Below the pieces are notes generated by a model. It was not told where the DNA came from and did not search any database. It saw only the letters and a list, made by a program, of their open reading frames with translations. Positions 1,774 through 31,924 of a stretch of DNA of 32,000 nucleotides are shown in pieces; positions within the stretch are counted from its first letter, which is position 1; each line of letters opens with the position of its first letter. The position numbers and the translations under genes are program-made. Source of the DNA: Promethearchaeota archaeon (GTDB lineage: Archaea; Asgardarchaeota; Odinarchaeia; Odinarchaeales; JBHLKK01); contig JBHLPL010000009.1 of the NCBI GenBank assembly GCA_048939465.1, positions 1 to 32,000 on the forward strand, given 5' to 3'.

Positions 1774-2077
1774 ATGGATGAGGAAGCGGACGAGAAGGTA
1801 AATCAAGCAATGACAGTATTAGGCATGATAGCTGAAGATACCTCTGTCCCCAGAAACATCAGACGTGCAGCAAATGAGGCTACTGATGCACTTCAAGACT
1901 CCAAGATTGAAAGTATGGCTGTGAGGGCATCAAATGCGATATCGATTCTCGACGAGGTATCTCAAGATCCAATCCGTTAAGAGTGTCCTCTTGGCGGGGA
2001 TAAACTGCCCCTTACACGCCAGAACAAAAATATGGAATGTAGTGAGCATACTTGAAACCGTCAAAGACTATGAATAG
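1774..2077 (+). CDS. UPF0147 family protein, two exons (1774-1972 and 2004-2077), 90 aa after splicing
   Basis: Exon 1 gives ...DTSVPRNIRRAA...RASNAISILDEVSQDP. The conserved tail NCPLHARTKIWNVVSILETVKDYE* continues in another frame after a 31-nt insert. Confidence 0.92.
1973..2003 (+). other. BHB intron (31 nt) in UPF0147 mRNA
   Basis: Central helix AUCC(1967-70)/GGAU(1998-2001), 3-nt bulges AAU(1971-73) and AAA(2002-04), intron stem CCGUUAAGAG/CUCUUGGCGG (10 bp including 2 G-U) with a UGUC loop. Cutting 2 nt into each bulge restores CCA-AAC-UGC (P-N-C). Confidence 0.9.
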
Positions 2078-2232
2078 CCTTGAGAAATTCAGCTCCTCTC
2101 TATTTAATACTACCTGAGATTTCTTTTATTCCTTCTTGTTTCATATCAATAGTCCAGGATTTCACTATCAAGTAGCTGGACTTCGCACCGCGGAATCAAT
2201 TTCACTTCAGAAGAATTACCTGATTCCGAGAA

Positions 2233-2246
2233 AAGAATTAATAAAT
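2233..2246 (+). promoter_or_regulatory. BRE/TATA-like promoter of tRNA-Ser
   Basis: Purine run AAAAGAA followed by TTAATAAA about 35 nt upstream of the mature tRNA 5' end. Confidence 0.5.
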
Positions 2247-2277
2247 GGCTAATTAGAAAGTACTCTCGGAATGCTGT

Positions 2278-2459
2278 GCCGGGGTAGCCAAGTGGTCTAC
2301 GGCGCTGGCCTCGAGAGCAGCTAACATAAAAGGAAGAATACATAAAAGACAACGGAAATCCTTTGGGACAGATTGAACAAGAAAGTCAGTGACGCAGTAG
2401 CGTCTCGCGGGTTCGAATCGGCGCTACATTACGCCGCGAGAATCCTGCCCCCGGCGCCA
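2278..2459 (+). tRNA. tRNA-Ser(CGA) with two introns (37/38: 2316-2383; 59/60: 2418-2442) and encoded CCA
   Basis: Acceptor stem GCCGGGG/CCCCGGC, discriminator G plus CCA, anticodon arm CTGGC-CTCGAGA-GTCAG after removing intron 1, long variable arm GACGC-AGTA-GCGTC, T arm GCGGG-TTCGAAT-CCTGC after removing intron 2. Confidence 0.93.
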
Positions 2460-2538
2460 CTTAATACAACCCATGTTACCGATCAATTAGTGCATCAATC
2501 AACACGAGTCGGGATTGGAGGGTTGGTGTTGAGGCTGT

Positions 2539-2863
2539 GTAGACTGCCCCCCGCTTTCGCAGGGAGCCTTCCATCAGAGGTTGAGTATGGTGCACCGCAC
2601 CACGCAACCCCACCGTCAACAGGACGAAAGAGCCTGCCTACAGGGACTCCAGCTCTGGTAAACTGGGAAAAGACGTTGTACCCTCGAACTTCCCGCACCT
2701 TATCTCATCAATCCCCCCCGCGGGTCATTAACCGTTTCCACATGGGAGAAAAGCGTGCCTTTAGCCCTATTCGAATATATTGCAAGAATGTAGAATGTAC
2801 TTGGAGACGGTTCAATCACTCTCCGCCCTTCCGGACGGAGTTTCCTTGAGGTGGTTCAGGTGT
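2539..2863 (+). mobile_element. Element E1 (325 nt): ORF-less IS200/IS605-like (omegaRNA/HEARO-like) insertion near the 5' end of porG
   Basis: Starts GTAGACTGCCCC plus a hairpin, ends with hairpin CTCCG..CGGAG-TTTCCTTGAGGTGGTTCAGGTGT directly before ATGAA. Its 3' half aligns with E2 and E3. Family assignment is inference from end motifs. Confidence 0.7.
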
Positions 2864-3420
2864 ATGAAATTCGCTGGCATGGTCGAGGAGGACAAGGTGC
2901 AGTAACAGCATCCTATGTTCTCGTAGATGCCGCATATAGAGACGGCTATGAAGGCGTTCAGTCTTTTCCTTTTTTCGGTGCTGAGAGGAGAGGGGCACCA
3001 GTTAAAGCGTTTACTAGAATTTCAAAGACGATGATATATTCCCGCTGCCAAATTTATGAGCCTGATGCGATCATAGTTTTGGATCCTACTTTGCTGGATA
3101 TTGTCGATGTTACGGAAGGATTGAAAAGAGGCGGAGTCATTGTAGCCAATGCAAATGAGGTTCCAAAGAAATGGAGAAACAAGAATTGGAAGATATACAT
3201 AGTTGATGCTACTGCAATAGCGCTAGAAGTCGGCTTGATCGTAGCGGGATCCCCTGTATTAAACACGCCGATGCTGGGCGCATTTGCTAAAGCAACGGGA
3301 TTAGTAAGGCTGGAGAGAATCAAGGAAGCGATAAGCAATAAGTGGAAAGGCAAGGCCGGAGAAAGAAATATAAAAGCGGCAGAATTAGCATATGAACAGT
3401 GTAAATTGGTAGTATCTTAG
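2860..3420 (+). CDS. porG: 2-oxoacid (pyruvate):ferredoxin oxidoreductase gamma subunit
   Basis: YEIRWHGRGGQGAV and FFGAERRGAPVKAFTRIS. GTG at 2860 follows SD GAGGTG. Substrate specificity (por versus vor/kor) cannot be resolved from sequence. Confidence 0.92.
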   Translation: MYEIRWHGRGGQGAVTASYVLVDAAYRDGYEGVQSFPFFGAERRGAPVKAFTRISKTMIYSRCQIYEPDAIIVLDPTLLDIVDVTEGLKRGGVIVANANEVPKKWRNKNWKIYIVDATAIALEVGLIVAGSPVLNTPMLGAFAKATGLVRLERIKEAISNKWKGKAGERNIKAAELAYEQCKLVVS

Positions 3421-3436
3421 GCTAGGGGGACTTATT

Positions 3437-3769
3437 CTGAATTCTGGAACTCGGCAAAAGAGTCTGGTTCTTGGAAAGACTGCTAAGACCAAGAAAAAGA
3501 AAGCAGGAATTAGACCTGACGCAATACCTTTATCAAAGCCTGGCAGGGGATCTTACGGCAGAACCGGAGATTGGAGAACCTTCAAGCCGGTAATGGATAA
3601 AGAAAAATGCAACAAATGTATGCTCTGTTGGCTTTATTGTCCAGAAGGAGTAATAGATCAAGGGAAAGAAGGATATCCGAAAATCGATTATATGTATTGT
3701 AAAGGTTGTGGCATTTGTGCTCAAGAATGCCCATCCAAGTGCATAGAAATGGTGAGAGAGGAAAAGTAA
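3437..3769 (+). CDS. porD: 2-oxoacid:ferredoxin oxidoreductase delta subunit (2x[4Fe-4S]); start codon uncertain, missing from the ORF track
   Basis: The frame encodes PLSKPGRGSYGRTGDWRTFKPVMDKEKCNKCMLCWLYCPE...YCKGCGICAQECPSKCIEMVREEK*. There is no in-frame ATG/GTG/TTG before the conserved region; CTG at 3437 after GGGGGA is tentative. Confidence 0.88.
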   Translation: MNSGTRQKSLVLGKTAKTKKKKAGIRPDAIPLSKPGRGSYGRTGDWRTFKPVMDKEKCNKCMLCWLYCPEGVIDQGKEGYPKIDYMYCKGCGICAQECPSKCIEMVREEK

Positions 3770-4065
3770 ACTATTCCTCTCCTGTCGAAGGAGCTTATGA
3801 CTATGCTAGACCTCAATTCCCGAGCGGGCTTTGGTTCCGGTACACGCCAAATCAGGGGGCAGTTTACATCGTCCCAGCCCACTAGTCCCCATATAACGTC
3901 GGGGTTTATAGTTTATTTCACACATCTTCCCCACAGGTCGGTGACCGTTTCCGCGTCAGAGAGGGGTGCGCCTTTAGATATTTCAGCAAATATATAACAA
4001 ACGTATTTGAAGGCCACTAAATTCCTCTCCTCCCTTTCGGACGGATTCTCCTTGAGGTGGTTCAA
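3766..4065 (+). mobile_element. Element E2 (300 nt) at the porD/porA junction
   Basis: Starts GTAAACT (overlaps the porD TAA), ends TTCTCCTTGAGGTGGTTCAA directly before ATGAA (porA start). About 70% ungapped identity to E3 over 138 nt by hand count. Confidence 0.8.
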
Positions 4066-5277
4066 ATGAAAACACAGATTATGACGGGAAATACGGCTGC
4101 AGCGTATGCTGCCAAATATGCGAGAGCACAAGTTATCGCTGCTTATCCCATAACACCACAAACCACAATCGTAGAAGCGATAGCGAGTCTCATAGATGAA
4201 GGTGAAATGGAAGCAGAATACATTCGTGTCGAGAGTGAACACAGTGCTATGGCAGCTTGCATTGGTGCTGCCGCTACTGGAGCCAGAGCATTTACTGCAA
4301 CATCATCCCATGGCCTTACTTTGATGCATGAAATGCTTCATTGGGCTAGCGGATCTAGGTTGCCCATTGTTATGGCAAATGTCAATCGAGCCATGGGACC
4401 GCCGTGGAATATATGGCCCGATCACAATGATAGCATATCACAAAGAGATGTTGGATGGATACAATTCTATGTCGAAAACAATCAAGAGGTATTCGATACG
4501 ATCTTACAGTGCTACCGGATTTCTGAAAACCAAGAAGTTCTGTTGCCCTCCATGGTGAACCTCGACGGCTTTATTATTTCTCACACCTCTGCCCCGCTAA
4601 GCTTACCTGGTCAAGAAGAGGTCGATGAATTCATACCGGACTATAACCCAAATCCGGAGAAACAACTTGTCATGGATACTCACAAACCAGTGACACATGG
4701 CAACATCATTATGGTTAACAGTCCAGACGATTGGTATTATGAGTATCGTTATATGATTCACGAAGCTATGATGAACGCCAAGAAGGTCATTCAAGAAGTT
4801 GTAGAGGAGTTTCACAGAAGATTCGGTAGGTCACACGGGGGATTGGTTGAAGAGTATAAATGTAAAGATGCAAACCTGATTTTAGTATCCATGGGAACTA
4901 TTGCAAGCCAGGCTAAAGCCGCTATCGATGAGTTGAGACAGGAAGGATACAAAGTGGGAGCTCTCAAGCTAAGGGTTTTTAGACCATTTCCTAGGGAGGA
5001 GTTCCAAAGACTGGCAGATAGAGTCGAAGCCCTTGCGGTGATAGACAGGAACATATCTTTTGGAATGGGGGGTGCAGCTTCCGCAGAGATTAAGGCTGCA
5101 TTATACAATCACAAGAAACACCCATTAATCTTGGAGAACATCGCAGGAATAGGAGGGAGAGACGTGACATCCTCCGATATTAAAAAGATGGTTCTGGGTG
5201 CATTAGAAGTGCTAGAAACTGGTAAAACAGGAGAGGATATTAATTGGCATGGCCTCCGAGTGGGAGAAATGAAGTAG
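4066..5277 (+). CDS. porA: 2-oxoacid:ferredoxin oxidoreductase alpha subunit
   Basis: AYPITPQT, VESEHSAM, ATSSHGL, NVNRAMGPP, KLRVFRPFP. ATG at 4066 with SD GAGGTG. Confidence 0.95.
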   Translation: MKTQIMTGNTAAAYAAKYARAQVIAAYPITPQTTIVEAIASLIDEGEMEAEYIRVESEHSAMAACIGAAATGARAFTATSSHGLTLMHEMLHWASGSRLPIVMANVNRAMGPPWNIWPDHNDSISQRDVGWIQFYVENNQEVFDTILQCYRISENQEVLLPSMVNLDGFIISHTSAPLSLPGQEEVDEFIPDYNPNPEKQLVMDTHKPVTHGNIIMVNSPDDWYYEYRYMIHEAMMNAKKVIQEVVEEFHRRFGRSHGGLVEEYKCKDANLILVSMGTIASQAKAAIDELRQEGYKVGALKLRVFRPFPREEFQRLADRVEALAVIDRNISFGMGGAASAEIKAALYNHKKHPLILENIAGIGGRDVTSSDIKKMVLGALEVLETGKTGEDINWHGLRVGEMK

Positions 5278-5570
5278 ACTGCCCCTCCGATAAGAAAGGA
5301 GTTTATGACTATGTTTGACTACAATTTCTTCAGGGGGTCCGGTTGCATCACATGCCAAATCAGGGGACGGTTTATAGCGTCCCAGCCCAGTGACCCGCAC
5401 ACAGCGTCGAGGTATGTAGTCTCTTTCACCCATGCTCCTCATCCGTTATTAGCCGCTTCCTCCCTCCGAGAGCGTACCTCTGAATCCATTAGCACGGTTG
5501 AAACGAACGTATTTAAGGACCGCCCAATTGATCCCTTACTTTTCGGAAAGAAACTTCGTGAGGTGGTTTG
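5274..5570 (+). mobile_element. Element E3 (297 nt) at the porA/porB junction
   Basis: Starts GTAGACTGCCCC (overlaps the porA TAG), ends CTTCGTGAGGTGGTTTG directly before ATGAA (porB start). Homologous to E2. Confidence 0.8.
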
Positions 5571-6476
5571 ATGAACTCAATATTAGGACTTCCGAGGAAG
5601 GAACTCGTGTATAAGGGAAATAGCGCGTGTATGGGTTGTAGCGCTGTATTGGCAATGAGACATGTGTTAAAAGCTCTAGGTGAGCAAACTGTCATGATCA
5701 TACCGGCAGGCTGTAGCACAATAATTCAGGGTCTCTATCCAAAAACTGCTATTGGCGTTCCTCTGCTCAACATCGCTTTCGAGGCTGCTGCAGCTGCGGC
5801 CTCCGGCATTACAGCAGGATTTAGAGCTCAAGGAAAGAAGGACATTACTGTGGTAGCGTGGGCAGGAGATGGAGGGACATTTGATATTGGACTTCAGGCA
5901 TTAAGTGGTGCGGCAGAACGTCAGACGAATATGATTTACATATGTTATGACAACGAGGCATACATGAATACGGGAATTCAACGTAGCGGCGCAACCCCCT
6001 ACGGAGCCATAACGACCACGACGCCGGGAGGAAAGAGACTACCTAAAAAGGACCTTGATGCGATTGTCTTGGCTCACGACGTACCTTATTTGGCAACTGC
6101 CAACATAGGATACCCACAGGACCTCTATAGGAAAGTCAAAAAAGCGAAAGAAAAGGAAGGATTCAGATTCATCCACATACTAAGTCCTTGCCCCCCAGGA
6201 TGGAGGTTTGATTCAAGTCTTACAGTCACCCTGGCGAAGTTGGCGGTTCAGACTGGCATATGGGTACTGTTTGAGGTGGAAGACGGCAAATTCAGACTTT
6301 CAGGACCAAGCAAGAGACTGCTGGACCCGAATAAAAGAAAGCCTGTCGAAGATTATCTGAAGCTTCAGGGAAGATTCTCAGAGCTCACAGGTGAGGATGT
6401 GAAAGAGATAAATAGAGAGATCGTGGAAAACTGGCAAGAAATAAACAGAAAAGTCTCTCGAGCAGAAGGAGTGTAG
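5571..6476 (+). CDS. porB: 2-oxoacid:ferredoxin oxidoreductase beta subunit (TPP-binding)
   Basis: ACMGC, GDGGTFDIGLQ...CYDNEAYMNTGIQRS (TPP motif), SPCPPGW. Confidence 0.95.
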   Translation: MNSILGLPRKELVYKGNSACMGCSAVLAMRHVLKALGEQTVMIIPAGCSTIIQGLYPKTAIGVPLLNIAFEAAAAAASGITAGFRAQGKKDITVVAWAGDGGTFDIGLQALSGAAERQTNMIYICYDNEAYMNTGIQRSGATPYGAITTTTPGGKRLPKKDLDAIVLAHDVPYLATANIGYPQDLYRKVKKAKEKEGFRFIHILSPCPPGWRFDSSLTVTLAKLAVQTGIWVLFEVEDGKFRLSGPSKRLLDPNKRKPVEDYLKLQGRFSELTGEDVKEINREIVENWQEINRKVSRAEGV

Positions 6477-6688
6477 AAAGAGATTCAGAGACGAAATGAT
6501 ATACTACGTTATAGGACAAAGTAAGATGTTGTATGCCGACGTATTACGTTCTACGATTGCAGGAGGAGTACTGAGGGGTATTGGTTTCTTTACGCAAGAT
6601 TTTTAAGAAGATACAATAAATAAGAATCACCTCTTTAGAGGTTTTCAACTTCAAGTATAAAATCAGAGCCAAAATGGGGTGAAGTCTA

Positions 6689-6991
6689 ATGACAGAGAAC
6701 ACAATCTTTGTTGGAAACAAACCAGTTATGAACTATGTTTTGGCATGCGTAACTCAGCTGAATCAAACCGACATGGAAGAAATAGTCATTAAAGCAAGAG
6801 GACGGGCGATTAGTCGCGCAGTTGATGTTGCAGAGATACTCAGAAATCGATTCATGACCAATGTTGACGTAAAAGACATAAAGATCAGCACTGAGCAAAT
6901 TAATACCGCAGAGGGCGGAACAGCAAACGTCAGTGCAGTCGAGATCTCGCTGGGTATGAAAGCTGCCAAACCTAGTAAAAAGAAGAAGTAG
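6689..6991 (+). CDS. albA: DNA/RNA-binding protein Alba
   Basis: [38 protein letters not shown]; extra basic C-terminal tail. Confidence 0.96.
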
Positions 6992-7017
6992 AAATACCTT
7001 CTAAGGCAAAGGGAACT

Positions 7018-7036
7018 CTTTTTTCTTTTTCTTTTT
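7018..7036 (+). terminator. Oligo-T archaeal terminator after alba
   Basis: CTTTTTTCTTTTTCTTTTT-type run about 25 nt after the stop, between convergent genes. Confidence 0.6.
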
Positions 7037-7082
7037 AGTTGTATGACCTTTCAACACAAATATGAAGACGATGGGAATTTTG

Positions 7083-7643
7083 TTACCCAAGAACGTATCC
7101 AATTTGTTTGACAAGTTCACGACGTTCTTTGCGTTGATCGTCTGTTTCTATTCTTTTCACAGATTGTCCGTCCACAAAGCCCAATACTGCACGGCCTTCC
7201 ACACCATTGATGCCCACTTCTGCGACTATTACCTTGCAGCGATTCGCAGTTGCGCCGTAGACTATCGCGACATGTGGTAATAGCTTGATACTATTTAGAA
7301 CATTAATCGGCCATGCTCCCTGAATCATGATTACAAATACATGACTTGCCCCGATATTTCTGCAGTTTTCAGCCGTCAATTGCTCTAGTTCGGGGTCGTT
7401 ACTATTGACACGGGTAAGTCTGGGATCTGCTTCATTCATTGCACAAGCAAACTTCACATCACCAGTAGTTACTCCCGGAACTGACATCTGAATGGTCCGG
7501 AAGAGGTCGTCAACAAGTTTTACTGAGAAATTGGGGTCCCTCTACCTCTTGTATTGATCTTAAAGGGATTTCCCCTGTCCGACAATTATCTGATGCTCGG
7601 GTTCCTTCTTAATGTCTATTGAAATGAGTTTTATTTCGCTCAA
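7083..7643 (-). CDS. Adenosine-specific kinase family (DUF355/PAE2307-like), two exons (7643-7570 and 7530-7083), 173 aa after splicing
   Basis: TTG at 7643 with SD GGAGG 7 nt upstream gives MSEIKLISIDIKKEPEHQIIVGQG, then NFSVKLVDDLF...NEADPRLTRV..ND..L...IGASHVFVI...WPINVLN...ATAN...GFVDG...ERRELVKQIGY. Confidence 0.9.
7531..7569 (-). other. BHB intron (39 nt) in DUF355 mRNA
   Basis: Minus strand: helix GGGG/CCCC, bulges AAA and AAU, intron stem UCCCUUUA/UAGAGGGA (8 bp). Two in-frame stops (TAA, TAG) lie inside. Splicing gives GGG-AAU-UUC (G-N-F). Confidence 0.9.
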
Positions 7644-7808
7644 CTCTTGACCTCCTTTTCAATATCATGGATTAAGACATTATTTCAATCAGACTGTAAT
7701 AAATCCTTTTGAAATCCTTTTTATCTAGGTAAACCTTTTTCCCTAATATTCAGATGAATGAGGAGACTGATTGCATTCATAAGTGCCAAAAAAGAATATA
7801 AGAAGGAA

Positions 7809-8900
7809 TTACAGTGCTAATGTTCCTCGCTTGATAACAGGCTTTCCATCTAGCTCAATAGTTGGTTGAGTGGCGGTGATTTGTTGATACCAACTAGTTT
7901 CATTCCTTCCATGCTGTGCTTTATTGTCGCCTATCGCTAACGTAACTGTTCCTAGGACGATTTCGTTCTCAATAAAACCGGTTTTGGCCTTTGGGTTCAA
8001 ACCCAGCAGGAACAATCCTAGTCTGTCTTTGTCGCCTTTTGCGTTTTTCCAGCTTGATTTCATTGTTTCCACATTCTTGCTTCCTTCAAAGGACACTAGT
8101 CTTCCGTCTTTGAATTCCCAGGAAATACCATGGACTAGCTTGGCTGCAAACGCCTCAGGAATGTCTGAGACAAATCTCCCATTTACGCTTGCTTCCGAAG
8201 GTGCTAATCCAACAACCCCACCAGGCAAAATGACTTCTAGATTCCCCTTTCTAACATCCTCTTCATCGACTATACCATCATGGATGAAGGTAGGTCTATC
8301 TTCCAAGCTGAAGTTTATGTCCGTTCCCGTTGGGGTCGTGATACGAACCGTCTTCGCCTTTTCCAAGATATTGCCGATCTTGGTTCCAAGTCTCTTGATC
8401 TCCTCATACTCCACATCTAAAGAACTAATAGCGCTCTTCTTCCATTCGTCATAGTTGAATCCGTAGACTTTTGCTCTTTGAGGCGTAACTAGTCCTAAAC
8501 GAATATGTGCTGTCCGAACTCTTTTTTTAATCCACTTATCACGGTAGGACGTCCCTCCTTCGGAAGACGCAGCCCACCTTTCAGGATCAACTTGCTTCAT
8601 CCTCTCGGGATTCTCAGGACCCCATACGTTGATTGAGGCAGTCTGTGCATCCAATAACGCCAGTTCAAGGGGGTTGGACATTTTCAGATAATCTAAGGGA
8701 AGGTTGAGCATATAATCATAGAAAGTCTCGTCTGTATCAATCTGCAAAATCGCTTGTGCTCCAGTTCTTCTGCACTCCAACACAAAGGCCTTTGCCAAAT
8801 CAAGATTATGAGGGTATGCATAGATTACAACATTATCCTCTTTCCCTATTCTTAGACAGGTATTGATGACTCGCTTCACAAATGAAGGTACTTCCAACAT
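7809..8900 (-). CDS. Peptidase M29 (AmpT/AmpS-like) aminopeptidase homolog, probably lacking most metal ligands
   Basis: VRITTPTGTDINFSLEDR, DGIVDEED, LPGG..GLAP, FKDGRLV, LGLN, GTVTLAIGDN, ELDGKPVIKRG follow the M29 fold pattern. Confidence 0.8.
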   Translation of the reverse strand: MLEVPSFVKRVINTCLRIGKEDNVVIYAYPHNLDLAKAFVLECRRTGAQAILQIDTDETFYDYMLNLPLDYLKMSNPLELALLDAQTASINVWGPENPERMKQVDPERWAASSEGGTSYRDKWIKKRVRTAHIRLGLVTPQRAKVYGFNYDEWKKSAISSLDVEYEEIKRLGTKIGNILEKAKTVRITTPTGTDINFSLEDRPTFIHDGIVDEEDVRKGNLEVILPGGVVGLAPSEASVNGRFVSDIPEAFAAKLVHGISWEFKDGRLVSFEGSKNVETMKSSWKNAKGDKDRLGLFLLGLNPKAKTGFIENEIVLGTVTLAIGDNKAQHGRNETSWYQQITATQPTIELDGKPVIKRGTLAL

Positions 8901-16662: not shown

Positions 16663-17895
16663 TCAATCACAGGGTACGTTCGGAATAAAACCTATGCACC
16701 TCTTAATTCTATAGTCCGCTTCCAGAGACTCCTTAACCTGAGAGTCTGTAATGCTCAAAGCTACGCGTTTAGTCCTACCATAGCGGCCCTTACTAACGAC
16801 CTTAACCCCGATTATACCCAACGTGTCAAGTTCATTTATCAAGTCATTGACGCGTCTCTGAGTCAAAGAGTCCATGTGTAGCATCTGTGAAAGATCCAAG
16901 TACACCTTGAAAATATTCCGAGTTACTATCTCTGAGCATCCGTGCTTCTCGAGCAAGTAAATACTATACAATACAAGTTTCTGCTGAATCGGAAGTGTAG
17001 TTAATGCCTCTAAGATCGTATCGCGATCAATCTCATGCAGGGCACGCCTTACGTAGCTCTCCGTAATCTTTTTAGCCCCCTCTCTCTCACCCAACTCCCC
17101 GGCAACACGAAGGAGATCCAAAGCCCTTCTTGCATCTCCGTGTTCTCTAGCTGCTAGAGCAGAACAAAGGTTGACCACACCGAATTCCAACACACCGTTG
17201 TAGAATCCCATTTCAGCCCTCTGGCTGAGAATATCCTGAAGTTCTAGGGCACTATATGGGGGAAAGACGATCTCTTCCTCGCTAAGGCTACTCAAAACCC
17301 GGGAGTCCAAATAGTCTTTGAATTTAAGGTCATTAGTAATCCCGACGATGCTCACACTCGCTTTCTTAAGCTGAGTATTTATCCTGGTTAAACCATACAA
17401 AATATCCGTACCACTTTTCTTCACCAGGATATCAACTTCATCCAGGACTATTATCATCAGTTGTTTCTTGGAATCGAGGTTCTTTTTGAACCTAGAGAAA
17501 ACAGTATAGGACGACAGACCAGTAGAGGGGATATTCGAGCTAACTTTGTCCGCCAGCTTTGTCAGAGCACGGTAATTAGTATCGACCATGCGACAGTTGA
17601 CATAGGCGTAGATGGGAGCAGGTACCCCCAGTTTAAGGCTCTTATCTGATAGGCGTTCGAGAACATACTTCGTCACAGCGGTTTTACCCGTTCCAGTCTT
17701 ACCATAAACAAAAACATTGGAAGGCGTGCCGTCTTTCAGTGCTGAGGCGAGGATGACTCCGACCCTCGTAATCTGTTCCTCTCTGTGAGGGAGTTCCTTT
17801 GGAACGAAAGTTGGTCGCATCACATCACGATTCTTGAATACTTTGCCAGAAAGGAACTTCTCGAACGTTTCATCTAGACTTTCACCGTACACCAT
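16663..17895 (-). CDS. cdc6: Cdc6/Orc1 replication initiator
   Basis: LPHREEQI, Walker A YGKTGTGKT, Walker B IVLDEVD, GDARRALDLLR, wH tail VSKGRYGRT. ATG at 17895 with SD GGAGG (the ORF track starts at 17976). Confidence 0.96.
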   Translation of the reverse strand: MVYGESLDETFEKFLSGKVFKNRDVMRPTFVPKELPHREEQITRVGVILASALKDGTPSNVFVYGKTGTGKTAVTKYVLERLSDKSLKLGVPAPIYAYVNCRMVDTNYRALTKLADKVSSNIPSTGLSSYTVFSRFKKNLDSKKQLMIIVLDEVDILVKKSGTDILYGLTRINTQLKKASVSIVGITNDLKFKDYLDSRVLSSLSEEEIVFPPYSALELQDILSQRAEMGFYNGVLEFGVVNLCSALAAREHGDARRALDLLRVAGELGEREGAKKITESYVRRALHEIDRDTILEALTTLPIQQKLVLYSIYLLEKHGCSEIVTRNIFKVYLDLSQMLHMDSLTQRRVNDLINELDTLGIIGVKVVSKGRYGRTKRVALSITDSQVKESLEADYRIKRCIGFIPNVPCD

Positions 17896-18444
17896 TAGTA
17901 AAGCCCTCCCAGACCCACCAAAAATGAAGTTGAAACTCTTAGTGTATTTTTCATTTTTAAGCGGTTTGCTTCTCACTCATAACGAAACGACACGACGACG
18001 AACAAACACAATAACGCCGGACATATATGAATTCACACGCGCCAATAACAATTCCACTGTGCTTCAATCCCCTGCCAATCGCCATGTAATTAATAAGCAG
18101 ATTCACACTAGGCGCCAGACCATGTGAACCCCAGTGACGGAGTTGACGATTAAAATGCGGTTTTCGTATGATGGCGCTGAAGAAGGGCAAATTTCATTCT
18201 GAAGGCCGACTAGGTTGCTTTCATTAGAAAAAGACAAAAGATTCGCTCATTAAATTCCAGCAAAACGTTCACACAATGTGTACATGTGAACATCCGATAA
18301 GGCCATAAAGGGGCCATATCCTCAAAAAAGACTTTTTGTCGGAGCTTTGTCGGCCCCCATCGTTCACAGATAAACATAAATAATAAGTTGATAGAGTAGA
18401 TACAGCAATGTTGGCATGACAGCGCCGGATGGGAGAAAGACGCA

Positions 18445-18909
18445 TTGAAAAAATTCAGGGTAAAGATTGAAGTTATGAACCACAACTCGGAAAAGATAAT
18501 AGTAACGATAGAGGGGGACCCGTCAAGGGAAATAAGAGATCTATCAGCACAGGTGCAAAATTACATATTCAAGGCAATTGGCCCCACCCCCGAAGCTAAG
18601 GAAAAGCAAGACCTCGAAGAATACATCGAACTGGACTCCTTATCAAAGAAACAGAAAATCGAACTTCTATTGATAAAGAATTTTAGAAATGGATCATTTA
18701 CATCAAGAGACGTTCAGGAGATGTATCTGCAAACATACAAAGAAGACATAGCAATAAATACTATTTCGACTTATTTAGGCCGACTATATAATGAAACGGT
18801 ACTTTACAGATCTGGCTCAAGAGCCGAACGAAAGTATCGACTGCAGACCGCAATAGCGAAAAGAAAGCTATCGTCACTCATGTCATACGCAAATCTCTCA
18901 AAAGAGTGA
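18445..18909 (+). CDS. Hypothetical protein with a C-terminal winged-helix-like domain
   Basis: FTSRDVQEMY...INTISTYLGRL...LYRSGSRAERKYRL; true start may be the ATG encoding MNHNSE. Confidence 0.7.
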   Translation: MKKFRVKIEVMNHNSEKIIVTIEGDPSREIRDLSAQVQNYIFKAIGPTPEAKEKQDLEEYIELDSLSKKQKIELLLIKNFRNGSFTSRDVQEMYLQTYKEDIAINTISTYLGRLYNETVLYRSGSRAERKYRLQTAIAKRKLSSLMSYANLSKE

Positions 18910-23746: not shown

Positions 23747-23752
23747 CAAATC

Positions 23753-24172: not shown

Positions 24173-24246
24173 CGAATCACCCCAAGCAAGTCCACCTACT
24201 GCCGTTGAGATATTCGGTAACCTTCTTGGATGTCTATCTTCTGCCC

Positions 24247-25446
24247 CTATGTTAATAATGATAGACATTCATCCAGAGATCCAAGCAAGACCGGTATTTT
24301 GCATGTTGATGGTACGTAATGCGCAGCTTTGCTCGAATTTGTGGCCAACCCATTGAACCCCATTCTTTCAAGAGGTGCAACAACCATACATGTATCCGCA
24401 ACAACAAGCCCTCCTGCCCTCTCAATCCTCCTTGCGTGACCAGTGCGTTCGGCAAGTGACTTAATTGAGGCAGACGTGCATATCCACAGTGTTTTGTCCC
24501 CCCTAATCTTTTTTCCCGATAGGGTTTCCGCAATATATTTAATCTCGTTCAAATTGCAGTGTGGGCATCCTATAGTAACGATATCCACATCCTCCCTCTT
24601 TGCTGTGGACAGCTTGTCAACGACATTTCTTATGTCGTTTTTCTCAATTTCTATCTTTTCCAGCTTTCTACATTCGCCTTCTCTAGGAGCCTCTGGTGTG
24701 ATACCTTTGATGTGATACATCGCTATTGCTCCAGATGCCGCTCCCCCCGCACCGAGCGCTTTCAACTCCTCTACTGAAGGTGAAGCGAGCCCACTGATAA
24801 CAGGAATTGCGTTTCTTAGCACTTTACCCATATGGTATCCTAGGCAACTATGCTCCAAAACACCTCTCAGCTCTGTCTTCACTTCGACGAGGTGAGTTCC
24901 ACGTCGATTTTCAGGATGATGATACCCAAATAGCGGGGTTCTAGCCGTCAGTGAGGCAGCAAGAGATGTAGGCCCACTTTCACGGTTTGTCTTTGCGCCG
25001 ATAATTGAGTTTGCAAAAGAAACTGCAGATGATTCTGCCCAGGCGACATGTTCTCCAAATAGGGGCATATTTCCAGAAATGTAAGGAGTACAACTGCACA
25101 GGGGAACTGCACCGAGTCGCTGAAGAGTCCGGACTATTCTCCATTGCTTCTTGGCGAAATCATTAGGGATACCCATTGCTTTCCATCGATTCAGATCCAT
25201 ACCTGCTGGATTCAATGTTGCAAGTGTTCTTATTGATCCACCCGCTGTCAACATATCTTCAATAAACTCTAATCCTGCATCGCCAATGTTCTTAAACGAG
25301 ATTCCGGATATTTGACTGCTCCGTATCTTGATTAGCTTTTCTGCACCAAACACTTCCCCAAGCTTAACCAGCAGCTTCATAGCTCTCTGGATTGCAGAAC
25401 CTTCTTCTCCCTCGATCATTCGTTCTTCTTCTTTGGTCAGGAACAA
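24247..25446 (-). CDS. Aconitase X catalytic subunit / phosphomevalonate dehydratase large subunit (DUF521)
   Basis: MFLTKEEE, TLNPAG, CSCTPY, AWAESSA, GAKTNRE, IGCPHC, DTCMVV, TNSSKAAHY. Confidence 0.94.
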   Translation of the reverse strand: MFLTKEEERMIEGEEGSAIQRAMKLLVKLGEVFGAEKLIKIRSSQISGISFKNIGDAGLEFIEDMLTAGGSIRTLATLNPAGMDLNRWKAMGIPNDFAKKQWRIVRTLQRLGAVPLCSCTPYISGNMPLFGEHVAWAESSAVSFANSIIGAKTNRESGPTSLAASLTARTPLFGYHHPENRRGTHLVEVKTELRGVLEHSCLGYHMGKVLRNAIPVISGLASPSVEELKALGAGGAASGAIAMYHIKGITPEAPREGECRKLEKIEIEKNDIRNVVDKLSTAKREDVDIVTIGCPHCNLNEIKYIAETLSGKKIRGDKTLWICTSASIKSLAERTGHARRIERAGGLVVADTCMVVAPLERMGFNGLATNSSKAAHYVPSTCKIPVLLGSLDECLSLLT

Positions 25447-25457
25447 AATTCACTCCT

Positions 25458-26771
25458 CTACAAGTCCTCTTGACCAGGTATTCTGGCTTTTCTAAACTTC
25501 TCTTTCGGCAAATCCAAAGGATGTGTAGCATCAATTCCGACTTTTGTGGTAAGTGCTCTTTCCTGATCTCCCATCGGGTCAAGACTAGATCCCCGTATGT
25601 TCGGTATGATTAGAATATCCTTATCTCCCAGCACTCGTGTAGCAATGGCCCATTCAACCTCGTTCATGTCATATGGATCTATATCCTCGTCGACGACCAC
25701 CGCATGTTTCAATGAGCCATGAGCCGAAAATGCAGCCAGCAATACGTTTTTTCCGTCACCCTCTGTCTGCTTTTTGATTGCCACTACCGCATGAAGCCAA
25801 CCAGAACCGCCGAGCGTAAGGTTTACCCCTCTTACATCAGGGACAACGTTTCTAGCTTGCTCCCATATCTTTACTTCCCTGAAGAACCCCATTAGCAGCT
25901 TATGTTCTGACCCTGCTGATAGAAGAGCAGAATAGATCGGGTTCTTTCGATGAAGTATGTTTGTTATTTCTATTACGGGCTGCTTTCTCACAATATCGTA
26001 TGTTCCTGTTATATCGACAAATGGCCCTTCATCCACTTCTTTATCAGGTAATATCCGCCCCTCAAGGACGATTTCTGCCTCCGCTGGAACCGTAATATTT
26101 ACCGTATTGCACCTTGTCGTTTGCAGCTCCCCTTTGAATAGTGTATTTGCGACTTGCATTTCATCTACTCCTAGCGGAACAGGAGCGCAAGAGGCCAACA
26201 TAACCACCGGATGAAGTCCTATTGCTATGGCTATGTCTAGTGGAGCTTTTTTCTCCTTGGCTTTTCTATGAATCGCGAACAGCTGCCTTGGTACGATACG
26301 AATCGCCAAACGATCCTTATCCATTACCATTAGTCTATGTATGGATGCATTTTGCATACCCGTCTCTGGATCACGCGCAAAGACCACACCTGCCGTTATG
26401 TACGGCGATTTGTCTTCAGCATAGTGCGTCAAGATCGGAAACTTCGTCAAATCTGGTTCTTCTTCTACTTCCTTTACGGGCGCGTTAGCAGCCTCATTAG
26501 GCTCTGAGGGCTGTTTCATAGCTTTTACAAGTGTTGGATAGATGTCCTTCCTTTGTACATTGAGGGCTTTGCCGAGCCTTTCACGTGTTCCACAGATACC
26601 TGCTGCAATCTTGATCGTCGAGTTTTTGACATTTTCAAAAAAAAGGGCCGGTCCATTATCGTATTTCTTCATTAATGCTGCTATTTGATATACTGGGGAA
26701 ACTTCTTCTTCTATAATAAGAATGTCATCTTCCTTCTTTAACTGCTCAATAAATCCACGTAGACTACTCAT
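25458..26771 (-). CDS. UbiD family prFMN-dependent decarboxylase (likely trans-anhydromevalonate 5-phosphate decarboxylase)
   Basis: NASIHRLM, EGPFVDITGTYD, SEHKLLMG, GGSGWLHAVV, VVDEDID, GSSLDP, KVGIDAT. ATG at 26771. Substrate is inferred from the operon. Confidence 0.9.
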   Translation of the reverse strand: MSSLRGFIEQLKKEDDILIIEEEVSPVYQIAALMKKYDNGPALFFENVKNSTIKIAAGICGTRERLGKALNVQRKDIYPTLVKAMKQPSEPNEAANAPVKEVEEEPDLTKFPILTHYAEDKSPYITAGVVFARDPETGMQNASIHRLMVMDKDRLAIRIVPRQLFAIHRKAKEKKAPLDIAIAIGLHPVVMLASCAPVPLGVDEMQVANTLFKGELQTTRCNTVNITVPAEAEIVLEGRILPDKEVDEGPFVDITGTYDIVRKQPVIEITNILHRKNPIYSALLSAGSEHKLLMGFFREVKIWEQARNVVPDVRGVNLTLGGSGWLHAVVAIKKQTEGDGKNVLLAAFSAHGSLKHAVVVDEDIDPYDMNEVEWAIATRVLGDKDILIIPNIRGSSLDPMGDQERALTTKVGIDATHPLDLPKEKFRKARIPGQEDL

Positions 26772-26775
26772 AGGT

Positions 26776-27333
26776 TCATCTCCCCTTCCATCTCGCAAAC
26801 AAATCATGCTTTATGCCTATTTGGTCCAGAATCTTGCCTATAACGAAATCCGTTAGTTCGTCTATATTTTTGGGCTTATGATAAAACGCCGGCATTGCAG
26901 GCAGGATGATCGCTCCTGATCGCTTTGCACGTAACATATTCTCCAAGTGTATCATGCTAAGTGGCGTTTCTCGAGGAACCAAGATTAATTTTCGACCTTC
27001 TTTTAAGACACAGTCTGCAGCTCTCGTAATTAAATTTGAGGAAAAGCCATTTGCGATTGCAGAAAGCGTTTTCATGCTACACGGAATAATAACCATCGCA
27101 TCAACTAAGAATGTTCCACTGGCAAGTTCTGTGAAAAACTCATCAGTTTTGTATGATTTCGATGCGAGTTTCTCTATTTCTTCTTTTTTCTGTTCGACTT
27201 CCCAGCTAATTATTTCTTTGGCAATTTCTGAAATAATTAAAGCTGTCTCAATATTCTCATCGCGAAGCACCTCTAGCAAACGAATACCATATATCACCCC
27301 TGAGGCGCCGGTAATTGCCACTATTATTTTCAT
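26776..27333 (-). CDS. ubiX: Flavin prenyltransferase UbiX
   Basis: VAITGASG, LASGT, PCSMKTLSAIANG..NLITRAAD..LKEGRKLILVPRETP, PAMPAFYHKP. Confidence 0.96.
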   Translation of the reverse strand: MKIIVAITGASGVIYGIRLLEVLRDENIETALIISEIAKEIISWEVEQKKEEIEKLASKSYKTDEFFTELASGTFLVDAMVIIPCSMKTLSAIANGFSSNLITRAADCVLKEGRKLILVPRETPLSMIHLENMLRAKRSGAIILPAMPAFYHKPKNIDELTDFVIGKILDQIGIKHDLFARWKGR

Positions 27334-27578
27334 GGAATCGCCTTAATAGAGGTTTCAGCTGTTGGAAATTAGGTAAATATGTCTTTCATACTTGTATAAA
27401 AACAGTGCAAACAGAATAATAGTAAAGTTGGAGACAGAAGTTTCTATATAAACATTATGATGGAAACACATTTTCAATACGTTTTATGCCGATTATTGAT
27501 GGGATCCTCAAGGATATCTAAAGAAACAATTGTGAAGCTAACGAGAGGTCTTACAAACCGCTTGTTTCAATTACTTCC

Positions 27579-27917
27579 TCATGAAGTTCTGATTTTGTCG
27601 AGTATTCTTTTCAAGAGTTTATATACTCTTGCTGAATCTTCTTCTGCTTTCTTCAAACTGATGATAACAACTGCAATTCTATTCATCTCGTGTGCAGTTC
27701 TCTCTGCCATACTCTTTGCAAAGATCTCGTTCCTTGTCCCGAATACCGGAAATGTTACTGCAGCCGTCTTCTTTTCCTCGATGCTTAACGGTACGCCTAT
27801 AGCTATGGTTCCAACTCTATACTCACCATCAGATATCGCGACGATTATTCCATTTTCTAGATTTATCGCCAGCGCTGACAAGTGTTCCTGCTTCTCTTCC
27901 AATACGTTTTTAGACAA
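27579..27917 (-). CDS. Hypothetical protein, possibly proteasome assembly chaperone PAC3/PAC4-like
   Basis: LENG..V.ISDGEYRVGTIAIGVP...AKSMAER...IAVVIIS resembles archaeal PAC4-like proteins; from recall, not searched. Confidence 0.5.
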   Translation of the reverse strand: MSKNVLEEKQEHLSALAINLENGIIVAISDGEYRVGTIAIGVPLSIEEKKTAAVTFPVFGTRNEIFAKSMAERTAHEMNRIAVVIISLKKAEEDSARVYKLLKRILDKIRTS

Positions 27918-27954
27918 TGCAATCTACTCTCCTATCTTCCCATTTGCTTAGTTT

Positions 27955-28953
27955 TTATGTCCTTTTCAAGATTTTGTTAAGAATTCGTGGTATATCAGAA
28001 TATCTCTGAAGCTGATAATATCTGCCTCCTCCCAGCTTTGATAGTCTCTCACACATCTTTTTGCCGATTGACTCCTTTGTAGGCAGCCCAATAACGTGTA
28101 AAACCGGAAAAGCTGCTGCGAAATTCTCTGGGGGTTCTCCAAAGTTGTGAAAACCGTCGGTTATAAGTATCCCCCATTTCCTTCTGTGCTTGATTTTTGA
28201 CAACTCGCAGAGACCTTTTTCCAATGCATCGGAAATGTTGGTGTAACCTGCCACTTCGGAATCCAGTATTGAATCTATAAGACGTAGCGTGGGCACTTTC
28301 CTATCGATAGGTTTCAGCACTGTGCCACGAGTGTTGAAAAGAATGACTCCGTAGTCGTCATTTCGCATATGATAAGCCGTAACTGCTGTCACCAACGCCG
28401 CATTTATTATTCTCCTATCGGACATGCTACCACTTGTATCCAGCATCAATACGCCTGTTTTCCTGGATTCTTTGCGTTCCAATCCAACGATATCGTCATA
28501 AGTAAGATATCTCTTTTCTAAATAATTCTCTAGTGTTTCTTCCATATCAAAATCTGCCATCCACGGCGTGTACCTGATTCTCTTTATCATTTCTCCTCTA
28601 ATGCCTCTCCCACTCACCCTAAGAGATGCTTTTAGAATCGATACTCTGGCTAATCGTCTAAAAACGCCCCTGTATCTTGATGAGAGTTTTCCCCTGACGA
28701 GAAAATACAATTCTGGCACTCTTGCGGAGTTTTCACTAATCTTTTGGCGCGTCAATTGTATGCCCTCATTTGCGGAGATAGCATCTGCGACTGCTAGCGG
28801 ATTTATGCCTGCCAAATTTACTAGGGCAGACAGATTCTCATATTTAATTGCCAGTTTGGACAGATGAACGAGTGAAGCATAGTCTAGTTTTTGCGCCAGC
28901 CTTTTGTAGATTTTAGGCGATTTCCCCTTGATTCTAATCTCTGCCTCAAGCAA
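27955..28953 (-). CDS. VWA-domain protein (CoxE-like), partner of the MoxR ATPase
   Basis: MIDAS LDTSGSM, GYTNISDALEKG, ILITDG; start codon uncertain. Confidence 0.88.
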   Translation of the reverse strand: MLEAEIRIKGKSPKIYKRLAQKLDYASLVHLSKLAIKYENLSALVNLAGINPLAVADAISANEGIQLTRQKISENSARVPELYFLVRGKLSSRYRGVFRRLARVSILKASLRVSGRGIRGEMIKRIRYTPWMADFDMEETLENYLEKRYLTYDDIVGLERKESRKTGVLMLDTSGSMSDRRIINAALVTAVTAYHMRNDDYGVILFNTRGTVLKPIDRKVPTLRLIDSILDSEVAGYTNISDALEKGLCELSKIKHRRKWGILITDGFHNFGEPPENFAAAFPVLHVIGLPTKESIGKKMCERLSKLGGGRYYQLQRYSDIPRILNKILKRT

Positions 28954-29030
28954 TTTTTCATCGGAGATTTTGCCAGATAATACAACCGGTGCTTCCTCAA
29001 TTGCGTCATCGGAGGATTTTTCCCCCTCGA

Positions 29031-29888
29031 TTAAGGAAAATCTCGGAGCGATTGCATTACTATGTCGCGTATGACATCCTCAAGTGACCTTTCGGCGCTA
29101 TCTTCCAGCTCTATCTTCATTGCTAAGGCAGAGGTCGCAGCTTCTATCCATGCCCCCTCGTCGTTGTTATCATAGTAGTTCATTATGCCTGCTATGTCTA
29201 TGGCTGCTCGGACAGAGGCTCCTCGTCTAATATCGGGGTGTTTTCGTGTGGTTCTTGTGATCTTCACAGCTCTACGAATCAATTCTCGGTCGGAGTTATT
29301 AGACCGCAGTTCTGTAATCTTACATTCGTCCTCTTCAGATTGATAATTCAATTTTATCCAAACAAAGCGGTCTTTCAATGCTTCTCCAAGTGTAGTCACC
29401 CCTACGTGTTCTTCCGGGTTCTGAGTCGCGATTATATAAAAACCGGGCTTTGCATGCAGAACCCCGAGCTTAGGGATGGTTATTTTCCCCTCATCCATCG
29501 CAGGTAATAAGACATTCTGTGTACCCTCTGGAAGTCGATTTAATTCATTCAGAAGTAAAACTCCCCCTTCCTTCATGGCCTTGGTTAAAGGTCCAGATAA
29601 GAAAGACTCCCAGTTGTATCCATCTTTTATGACGAGGGGTGGGTCGAAAACTCCGACCATCTTATTCTCATTAAACCTCTCGTCCCCATCTACCCTGAAA
29701 AACCCCTGATCGAAATACCTGGCGATGGCCTCAGCCAAAACCGTTTTACCTACGCCCACCTCGCCTTCTAACAGAAGATGCTTTCCTGCCAATCTTGAGC
29801 TAATCGCCCGTCCAAGCTCGCTGCTTCGTCCGATGATATTAAATCTTTTTTGTATTTCTATTATGCTCTCTTCTATGTTCTTATTCAT
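29031..29888 (-). CDS. MoxR family AAA+ ATPase
   Basis: LLEGEVGVGKT, LLNELNR, ATQNP, ALKDRF, GASVRAAI. ATG at 29888. Confidence 0.92.
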   Translation of the reverse strand: MNKNIEESIIEIQKRFNIIGRSSELGRAISSRLAGKHLLLEGEVGVGKTVLAEAIARYFDQGFFRVDGDERFNENKMVGVFDPPLVIKDGYNWESFLSGPLTKAMKEGGVLLLNELNRLPEGTQNVLLPAMDEGKITIPKLGVLHAKPGFYIIATQNPEEHVGVTTLGEALKDRFVWIKLNYQSEEDECKITELRSNNSDRELIRRAVKITRTTRKHPDIRRGASVRAAIDIAGIMNYYDNNDEGAWIEAATSALAMKIELEDSAERSLEDVIRDIVMQSLRDFP

Positions 29889-29919
29889 CTCGCTAGACCA
29901 CCGATTAGGCTTTTCAAAT

Positions 29920-31269
29920 TCATCTCCCTCTCTTCCGCTTACTCGCTGTCGACAGTTCCCTCCGTGCCATCTCAATGTTGGTAGTTTCTTGCACTTCAGT
30001 CTTCAAATTCTTTATTGTGATTTCTCCCCTCTCCATTTCTCGCTTGCCCACTATAATCGCATAATCGTAATTACTGCTTGAAGCAAAGGAAAGACTTTTC
30101 TTGAGGGTTCTATGCATCAGCTCCAATTCACACGGTATATTCCGTCTTCTTAGCTCCTGTGCAACTCTTGCTGCGTATGAATAGAGGTCTTCAGATGCCG
30201 CCACTACGAGTATCCTATTCATCCTCCAGAGGTCGGTAAATAGCTCTTCTTTTTCCATTGCCAGAGCTATTCTATCTAACCCAGGAGAGAAACCTACCGC
30301 CGGAGTCGGGGTTCCTCCAAAAAGTTCTACAAGCTTATCGTACCTACCCCCACCCCCAATTGCTATCGGTAGTTTCCTGTTAAATATCTCAAAGATCATT
30401 CCAGTATAGTATTCGAGTCCCCTGGCTAGACTGAGATCCAATTGTATTCTCTCTGTTATTCCCTGTGCCTTCGCTATTTCAACTATCTGATCCAGATTCC
30501 TCATAGCTCCTTTCGCTTTGGAATAACCTTCGACAATTCTGCGGGCATCCTCAACCCCTTTTTCAAGATCTTCGACTTTAATTTCCAGCAAGCGCCTTAT
30601 TGCTTCCAGGCATTTTTCTGATGCACCACGGTTGCTCAATAACCGGAACACTTCTGTCGTTTTGCCTGAATCAATCATTCCCAGTATTTCGTCCTGATAC
30701 CCTTCTTCAACACCTTCTTGTTCTAGGATACTGCGAATAATACCGACATGTCCTAATCGCAGTTCAAACTGTCCAAAACCAAGTGATGTCATCATATCAT
30801 AAGCTATGGCTAATATCTCGGCATCGGCTTCTGGATTTGGTGAACCAAAGATCTCGAAACCTCCCTGCCAGAATTCTCGATAACGACCCATCTGAGGTTC
30901 ATCGTATCTGAAGCACTGTCCTATGTAGCCCAGCTTAACCGGCTTTGGCACCGCTTTCATTAAAGAATCGATAAACAACCTCGTAACAGAAGGAGTCATC
31001 TCCGGTCTCAGTGCGACGGTTCTTCCACCCTTGTCCTCAAAAACGTACATTCTTTTTCTAATATCCTCTCCAGCTTTCATTGCTAATAATTCAAAATTCT
31101 CCACTATTGGCATCGAGACTTCACCGTAACCGTATTTTTCGAAGAGGTCTCTAACAACATCAATTACACGATCTAGCTTTGCTTTGTCTTCCGGCAAGAA
31201 GTCTCTCATTCCACGAACAGTCTTTATTATCTTGGGCAAGGGATTTCGCCTGCTCATTCGTTGTGACAA
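29920..31269 (-). CDS. hisS: Histidyl-tRNA synthetase
   Basis: RGMRDFLP, LRPEMT, FRYDEPQMGRYREFWQ, LARGLEYYTG, GGGRYDKL. Confidence 0.97.
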   Translation of the reverse strand: MSQRMSRRNPLPKIIKTVRGMRDFLPEDKAKLDRVIDVVRDLFEKYGYGEVSMPIVENFELLAMKAGEDIRKRMYVFEDKGGRTVALRPEMTPSVTRLFIDSLMKAVPKPVKLGYIGQCFRYDEPQMGRYREFWQGGFEIFGSPNPEADAEILAIAYDMMTSLGFGQFELRLGHVGIIRSILEQEGVEEGYQDEILGMIDSGKTTEVFRLLSNRGASEKCLEAIRRLLEIKVEDLEKGVEDARRIVEGYSKAKGAMRNLDQIVEIAKAQGITERIQLDLSLARGLEYYTGMIFEIFNRKLPIAIGGGGRYDKLVELFGGTPTPAVGFSPGLDRIALAMEKEELFTDLWRMNRILVVAASEDLYSYAARVAQELRRRNIPCELELMHRTLKKSLSFASSSNYDYAIIVGKREMERGEITIKNLKTEVQETTNIEMARRELSTASKRKRGR

Positions 31270-31348
31270 ATCTAACCAACAGCTGGTTTTTTAACTTATA
31301 GATTCATCACGATTATTTCTAAGACCCTTTGCGTCCCTTTATCCAACG

Positions 31349-31924
31349 CTAAAGGTTGACTTGCGCTGCAAAATAATATGTCGTTTCTCCTTGTCTATCT
31401 ACAACACCGAGAACGAGCCTTTTCCTAGAACTTGTTGCCGCTTTTATTATCTTCTCCAGGCTTGACAATTCTAAAGGTACTCCTTCAACCACAACATGTA
31501 TGAGGTATTTCGCCACGTCTTCATTCAAAACCGCTCCTCTTTCATAAACCCGAAAATCAACTCCGCTCCCATACCCAAGACGTACTATGTATCCTCTGCT
31601 TCGCAGATCCCGATACACAAGATATTTCGTCCATATCCTTGGGTCCACTTCTAATGTGCTTTTTAGGATACCCTGGAAGTCAAGCTCCTGTTTATTCTCA
31701 TCAAAAACTCTAAGCCTTCTCCGTTCCATAAGCAGTAGAGCCTCTACTATTTCAAGATTCAGCTTGTCCTCCTCCAGGATGCTTCCATAATAGCCAGCCT
31801 CATAAGTTGATGTTGCCTTTTCACCACTCACAATTACGCTATTGTCAACTAATACGCCTTCAACGATCTCTTCCTCTTCCAACTTTTTCCCCGCCTGAAG
31901 GTCTTGTTTCATCTTTGGAACCAC
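31349..31924 (-). CDS. endA: tRNA splicing endonuclease subunit, probably the structural (beta) subunit of an (alpha-beta)2 enzyme
   Basis: LEIVEALLL, YLVYRDLRSRGYIV, DFRVYERG, RKRLVLGVVDRQGETTYY. The catalytic His segment reads EDVAKY and the KYG/KFG segment reads GYGSG. Confidence 0.85.
   Translation of the reverse strand: MVPKMKQDLQAGKKLEEEEIVEGVLVDNSVIVSGEKATSTYEAGYYGSILEEDKLNLEIVEALLLMERRRLRVFDENKQELDFQGILKSTLEVDPRIWTKYLVYRDLRSRGYIVRLGYGSGVDFRVYERGAVLNEDVAKYLIHVVVEGVPLELSSLEKIIKAATSSRKRLVLGVVDRQGETTYYFAAQVNL

Follow-up and report, generated by a model that had tools for sequence, protein, structure and literature searches.

Splicing of archaeal pre-mRNA at motifs of the bulge-helix-bulge (BHB) type has been confirmed for cbf5 and for no other gene (PMC2738675). 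The crenarchaeal cbf5 gene (Aeropyrum, Sulfolobus) carries a short BHB-bounded intron within its coding sequence, which a hetero-oligomeric tRNA splicing endonuclease removes and which has been gained and lost in particular lineages (Watanabe 2002; Yoshinari 2006; Yokobori 2009, PMC2738675). Here we describe a comparable arrangement in a 32,000-nucleotide (nt) stretch of an uncultured Asgard archaeon (contig JBHLPL010000009.1, positions 1 to 32,000; hereafter the window), where introns of this kind appear to interrupt a UPF0147 gene, a PF04008 gene and a tRNA-Ser gene. The window is part of contig C139 of a 1.96-Mb metagenome-assembled genome (MAG) in 152 contigs, referred to as G000. We judge it about 85% probable that short (19-39 nt) BHB introns interrupt protein-coding as well as tRNA genes in this Asgard lineage, where the endonuclease is likewise predicted to be hetero-oligomeric and where introns also differ between related lineages. 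Whereas the cbf5 intron concerns one gene in one phylum, the introns predicted from the sequence of G000 fall in at least 12 genes, with three or more in ahcY. The cbf5 gene of G000 itself appears to be intron-free, its TruB_N domain lying uninterrupted within a 345-amino-acid (aa) open frame (C69:39744-40085, L030).

The non-canonical and multiple tRNA introns of Asgard archaea and Thermoproteales (Valentin-Alvarado 2024, PMC11291895; bioRxiv 10.64898/2026.10.13.758758) are a second close relative, sharing with the present introns the motif, the presumed enzymes and the genomes. The difference lies in the host, which here is an mRNA, and the exon half of the motif must therefore also encode protein. 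Both of those studies deal with tRNA genes only, and the text of the preprint does not contain the word 'mRNA'. A literature search of incomplete coverage turned up no account of BHB introns in the protein genes of Asgard archaea, and the Asgard papers that it returned treat tRNA introns only.

A third resemblance, by analogy and not by membership, is to the eukaryotic splicing of HAC1 and XBP1 mRNA by IRE1 and RtcB, in that a protein endonuclease is paired with RtcB. In the IRE1 system the endonuclease cuts two stem-loop sites in the mRNA, RtcB religates the exons and the reading frame changes. IRE1 is a kinase-RNase with a single regulated target, and the nuclease and recognition motif considered here are unrelated to it. 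The role of RtcB in XBP-1 splicing is mentioned in PMC8718801.

Interrupted genes in the window

A BHB was taken to be a 4-bp central helix (H) between 3-nt bulges on opposite strands, accompanied by a flanking helix on the intron side (h') and between the exons (h) in the full hBHBh' form, or by one of the two in the relaxed HBh' and hBH forms, and introns were excised in silico by cutting two nt into each 3-nt bulge. The other genes that Pfam annotated in the window were of the usual archaeal housekeeping kind (Hef, pyruvate:ferredoxin oxidoreductase subunits, Alba, Cdc6, the PolD small subunit, UbiD/UbiX, AcnX and HisRS). An earlier sequence-only reading had proposed four introns in the window, two in protein genes and two in one tRNA gene, and all four were recovered at the places it gave.

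The UPF0147 gene starts with an ATG at 1774 on the forward strand, and its first exon (1774..1972), delimited by the spliced translation, matches positions 2-61 of the 81 in Pfam PF03685. Left unspliced, the frame terminates at a TAA at 1978-1980 and the Pfam match ends with it; the missing 20 profile positions lie 30 nt downstream in a different frame, where the second exon (2004..2077, stop codon at 2075-2077) is matched separately at positions 61-81. The intervening 31-nt intron (1973..2003) is delimited by its fold, by the spliced translation and by comparison with relatives, and folds with H = ATCC/GGAT, a 5' bulge of AAT, an h' of 10 bp, a 3' bulge of AAA and an outer helix h of 2 bp. 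Excision yields a 90-aa product reading ...VSQDPNCPLHARTKIW, which runs in frame across the junction as the intronless orthologues do. The same 31-nt intron is found at the same site in the congeners G001 and G002 with compensatory CG/TA/TG changes in its stem, and in G012, which belongs to a distant family, exactly this site is occupied by a 29-nt intron whose H shows a compensatory exon-intron change. The three genomes of a sister family (G003-G005), among them the closed 1,418,269-bp genome G003 from the same order as G000, have no intron at this site; theirs lies eight codons further downstream and is a strict BHB intron of 27 nt (h' 8 bp, H = GCAC/GTGT; G003 L060 region, ~578.6-578.9 kb; G004 L171; G005 L172). 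This gene of 90 codons consequently has two different intron positions within one order.

The second case is a gene of the PF04008 ('adenosine-specific kinase') family on the reverse strand. An ATG-started open reading frame (ORF) at 7083-7487 covers only positions 34-153 of the 154-position profile, and the first 33 positions lie upstream behind an in-frame TAA. The complete gene would consist of a first exon at 7570..7643, starting with a TTG at 7643 that is preceded by a GGAGG ribosome-binding site, a 39-nt BHB intron at 7531..7569 that contains the TAA and is delimited by its fold and by relatives, and a second exon at 7083..7530 that holds the 34-153 match. The fold comprises H = GGGG/CCCC, a 5' bulge of AAA, an h' of 8 bp, a 3' bulge of AAT and an outer helix of 1 bp, and the spliced product, reading IVGQGNFSVKLVDDLF, again continues in frame across the junction as in intronless orthologues. 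Both window mRNA introns therefore carry stop codons, as the sequence-only reading had maintained.

The PF04008 intron interrupts the same codon, after the same GGGGAA, in seven genomes (G000-G006) of two families, with lengths of 39, 34, 34, 31, 30, 32 and 27 nt, respectively. These lengths span all three residues modulo 3, and the insert therefore cannot be coding. Throughout the seven genomes H is kept as GGGG/CCCC (with one G-U pair in G004) between A-rich bulges, while the stem sequence is wholly different between the two families and several h' pairs have changed on both sides within families; splicing by the BHB rule nonetheless yields IIGQGNFS in every one of them. Length variation without regard to triplets, together with a geometry that is retained, rules out coding inserts as well as sequencing errors. 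The PF04008 genes of two other Asgard genomes, G011 and G012, are uninterrupted. The two protein genes thus have in common a BHB geometry with a 4-bp H, two 3-nt bulges and at least one flanking helix, joined ORFs that match Pfam families and intronless orthologues, and conservation of structure over sequence, seen as covariation and as lengths free of any triplet rule.

The tRNA gene is likewise recognised only after excision. In the raw window sequence neither ARAGORN nor Rfam detected any tRNA or RNA family. Removing a 25-nt BHB intron from the T loop (2418..2442, forward strand; h' 5 bp, outer helix 5 bp) leads ARAGORN to call an 89-nt tRNA-Ser(CGA), encoded at 2278..2459 on the forward strand, with a further 68-nt intron of relaxed BHB type in the anticodon loop (2314..2381, forward strand; ARAGORN boundaries at 36/37, uncertain by 1-2 nt). 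With one intron in the 37/38 region and one in the T loop, this gene is a typical example of the Asgard and Thermoproteales tRNA introns introduced above. Genome-wide, ARAGORN called 25 tRNAs in G000, 19 of them intron-bearing, an intron load that fits the intron-rich Asgard tRNA sets described in PMC11291895 and bioRxiv 10.64898/2026.10.13.758758. An ORF at 2373-2849 has no family and overlaps both the tRNA-Ser gene and a copy of a dispersed repeat described below, and was treated as spurious.

Split protein genes across the genome

To place the two window genes in a genomic context, ORFs from the whole of the sister genome G003 and from ~60% of G011, an intron-poor Asgard genome, were aligned to G000 by tblastn, and breaks were defined by homology alone, as frame-shifting pairs of high-scoring segments or as stop-containing insertions inside such segments. 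In-silico splicing was then carried out at every BHB match and scored against the orthologue, with a score of at least 35 required on both flanks. With ~60% of G011 covered, the resulting intron count is a lower bound; 617-712 merged loci were comparable, and tblastn misses short exons. Seven loci passed this spliced-alignment test at the true boundaries versus 2-3 at shifted ones, and most of these control passes fell on the true loci themselves, in a different register. Strict BHBs were present at 9 of the 17 junctions defined by homology alone; as a strict BHB with precisely the length needed there is expected by chance at ~5e-4 per position and length, this excludes coincidence.

In total, the homology-based scan found at least 16 BHB introns of 19-39 nt in at least 12 protein genes of G000, with at least 10 of these genes lying beyond the window on other contigs, their breaks defined by homology and repaired by splicing under the BHB rule. 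Strict BHBs of exactly the expected length occur in ahcY (C118:346-377, 32 nt; C24:7305-7334, 30 nt; C24:7268-7289, 22 nt), an mtaD-like amidohydrolase gene (C118:3265-3291, 27 nt), DRG (C113:448-471, 24 nt), a class-III aminotransferase gene (C4:11883-11912, 30 nt), a radical SAM gene (C127:114-143, 30 nt) and CitG (C62:14791-14809, 19 nt). Relaxed BHBs were found in an EF-2 paralogue (C68, 31 nt), an amidase gene with at least two introns (C77) and kae1 (C69, 25 nt), the last of which was missed by the strict scan because its H contains two G-U pairs. The eS30 gene has an internal TAG. One break, at C31:18818-18853, was rejected as an intron as it coincides with a run of N.

Comparison with sister genomes, which the sequence-only reading had proposed as a check, revealed differences in intron presence. 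Five G000 introns (in DRG, the mtaD-like gene, the aminotransferase gene and two in ahcY) have no counterpart in G003, indicating an intron set in flux. Introns therefore turn over, with presence and absence differing between sister families and one gene having two intron sites. Broken genes were also observed in G003 (~737.5-738.1 kb and 535.3-535.8 kb), namely an amidase ORF whose match is limited to positions 1-153 of a 445-position profile and a locus that is frame-shifted relative to G011; mRNA introns are thus not peculiar to G000.

The same sequence-only reading had predicted many more split genes throughout the genome and, with them, a hidden spliced proteome. The first part is borne out by the 10 or more further genes; the scale is one of tens of genes and not of a large hidden proteome: the true number of split protein genes is probably a few tens, or ~1-2% of the comparable loci. 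As a separate observation, six G000 genes contain extra stretches of 200-290 nt between colinear homology blocks (C46:14390-14727, C137:17731-17942, C138:52420-52655, C62:9910-10262, C77:34681-34850 and C4:395-687), which may correspond to insertions, to variable domains or to introns of greater length.

A predicted splicing machinery and its alternatives

Two distinct paralogues of the splicing endonuclease EndA are encoded in G000. The window copy (31349..31924, reverse strand; genome-wide EndA match at 31376-31636) has both EndA Pfam domains, and its nearest named public record is from a 'Candidatus Hodarchaeota' MAG at 84% identity, a phylum that NCBI assigns to the Asgard kingdom Promethearchaeati. 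In an alignment of the window copy with the EndA of M. jannaschii (1a79), the catalytic Tyr and Lys are retained and a Val stands at the position of His125. The sequence-only reading had described an EndA subunit lacking the segment with the catalytic His; the His is indeed lost, but by a point substitution to Val and not by loss of the segment. The window copy is presumed to be the structural beta subunit of an (alpha-beta)2 enzyme, and its partner alpha gene lies on contig C90 (C90:9287-9538; locus L001:1168-1782). The C90 protein has the full Tyr/His/Lys triad (VYEHG, GIDHSPF, VRKKF) and matches the catalytic chain of the A. pernix enzyme (3P1Z chain B, E = 1.5e-44) through the crenarchaeal-specific loop (CSL, or L1) and its Lys, the GIRKPK of C90 aligning with the DVEKPR of A. 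pernix that contains K44.

This combination of a catalytic, loop-bearing subunit with a second paralogue that lacks the catalytic His resembles the (alpha-beta)2 enzymes of A. pernix (3P1Z), S. tokodaii (2CV8) and P. aerobicum (2ZYZ), in which the loop confers a broad substrate range (PMC3241643, PMC5829648). The heteromeric composition suggested beforehand is in agreement with the (alpha-beta)2 EndA with loop already reported for Asgard archaea (Kaneta 2018, PMC5829648). Unlike the crenarchaeal beta chains, to which it is only distantly similar (E about 4e-4), the window subunit is much closer to the homotetramer subunit of M. jannaschii (E = 1.6e-28) and retains the Tyr and Lys of the triad.

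Searching for the catalytic endA and the ligase, as had also been proposed, located the former on C90 and two RtcB genes, on C78 (E = 1.3e-97) and C31 (E = 1.8e-152). The C31 match is interrupted by ~1.4 kb inside one open frame of 973 aa (C31:2961-5708; L027, L029), the interruption being very likely an intein. At C78:9830-11013, a second gene has a similar in-frame insertion of ~1.2 kb relative to G003 and G011.

From these components a mechanism may be proposed in which the pre-mRNA would fold locally as H-B-h' or h-B-H-B-h', the exon supplying half of the 4-bp central helix; the predicted (alpha-beta)2 endonuclease, composed of the loop-bearing alpha subunit on C90 and the beta subunit in the window, would cut two nt into each 3-nt bulge; and RtcB would ligate the resulting 2',3'-cyclic phosphate and 5'-OH ends, with the full protein becoming translatable only afterwards. 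Of this scheme, the analysis observed the BHB motifs, the restoration of the frame on excision, conservation accompanied by covariation, and the genes for the enzymes.

Several points weigh against this reading. Cleavage and ligation of the G000 mRNA introns are steps that we infer. The outer exon-exon helix h is merely 1-2 bp in both window introns, making them relaxed HBh' substrates, and their cutting would depend on the properties of the predicted enzyme. G000 is 91% complete with 3.8% contamination. Furthermore, a structure-only scan of G000, in which BHBs were sought that join two open, codon-biased frames (283,000 BHB-like matches up to 300 nt and 122,273 micro matches), found no more cases than did controls whose 3' boundary had been moved by 1-2 nt, its background consisting mainly of chance fusions of adjoining genes. 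The BHB motif alone is thus not diagnostic and the intron total is uncertain. Structural scanning was rejected as a counting method for this lack of excess, with homology to G011 and G003 used in its place, and the genome-wide search for BHB-split genes proposed by the sequence-only reading accordingly failed on structure and succeeded on homology-defined breaks.

If nothing were spliced, the breaks would have to be pseudogenising insertions, frameshifts or assembly errors in dead genes, a view with which the fragmentation of the MAG into 152 contigs and the truncation of both window genes when unspliced are compatible. We find it scarcely credible given that the same codon is interrupted in as many as seven genomes, assembled independently and belonging to two families, that insert length varies while the BHB geometry is kept by compensatory pairs, that the exons on either side are conserved at the protein level, and that essential single-copy genes such as kae1 are also hit. 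A living gene might instead bypass its insert without EndA and RtcB, through translational hopping or frameshifting, a self-splicing ribozyme or removal at the protein level. Nothing specific speaks for this, beyond the precedent that cbf5 cases were once mistaken for translational frameshifting (Yokobori 2009, PMC2738675). It also seems highly improbable: at 19-39 nt the inserts fall short of the size of group I or II introns and of inteins, and they have stops inside; Rfam detected no ribozyme, and the exact EndA recognition geometry is kept, with cut sites that restore the frame in every genome at any insert length.

An alternative of a different kind accepts splicing by EndA and RtcB and adds that the introns may act as a switch, whereby splicing efficiency (set, for example, by temperature or EndA level) would determine the amount of functional protein. 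An in-frame stop in both window introns means that unspliced mRNA gives truncated products, and a function would be consistent with the PF04008 intron having been kept for a long time across an order. On the other hand, the split genes do not belong to one pathway, being concerned with translation factors, tRNA modification, the methyl cycle, an amidase, CitG and proteins of unknown function, and introns come and go between sister families, as do the five absent from G003, in a manner that looks like neutral gain and loss. We regard a regulatory role as unlikely. Returning to BHB splicing as such, we lean slightly towards its broadest form: that this Asgard lineage may harbour tens of enzymatically spliced micro-introns that are still being gained, lost and re-sited in ordinary genes, even essential ones of translation and tRNA modification, like a population of spreading elements, and that obligatory mRNA splicing would be normal in a prokaryote.

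Neighbouring features and significance

The window also contains copies of a dispersed, non-coding repeat of ~300 nt, of which G000 has at least 15 full copies at 65-77% identity. Window copies lie at 3768-4068 and 5276-5574, with a diverged one at ~2560-2862; others are at C66:3254-3552, C38:1586-1876 and C118:3637-3923, and further copies occur on contigs C23, C25, C61, C10, C59, C69, C73, C96, C106, C27 and C116. Every copy opens with GTAAAC, placed immediately at the upstream gene's stop codon, and closes with GAGGTGGTTyAGATG, from which the following gene takes its ribosome-binding site and start codon; the two ends are inverted complements. Its internal ORF is not conserved and its consensus fold was found to be weak. 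The three window copies separate porG, porD/porA and porB; G003 lacks the repeat, and its porD and porA genes are directly adjacent. Large introns were considered for these por repeats and rejected, as the copies lie between separate genes, show no BHB at their ends and have no conserved internal ORF; the element looks like a miniature inverted-repeat transposable element that targets gene junctions. A candidate replication origin elsewhere in the window (region 16663-18445) is the gene-free stretch of 470 nt at 17976-18445 that comes after a Cdc6/Orc1 gene.

Should a dozen or more genes of an Asgard archaeon need splicing, it would follow that gene callers systematically cut genuine genes short or break them apart in such genomes. 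In the window, the UPF0147 and PF04008 genes were called short or without their ends, and the tRNA-Ser gene was overlooked entirely. The presence and absence of introns among sister genomes provide a tractable system for studying how BHB introns arise and move. Asgard archaea are the closest prokaryotic relatives of eukaryotes, and the present findings, if true, would amount to obligatory, protein-catalysed mRNA splicing at genome scale in these archaeal relatives, and would bear on the tolerance of interrupted genes before the spliceosome.

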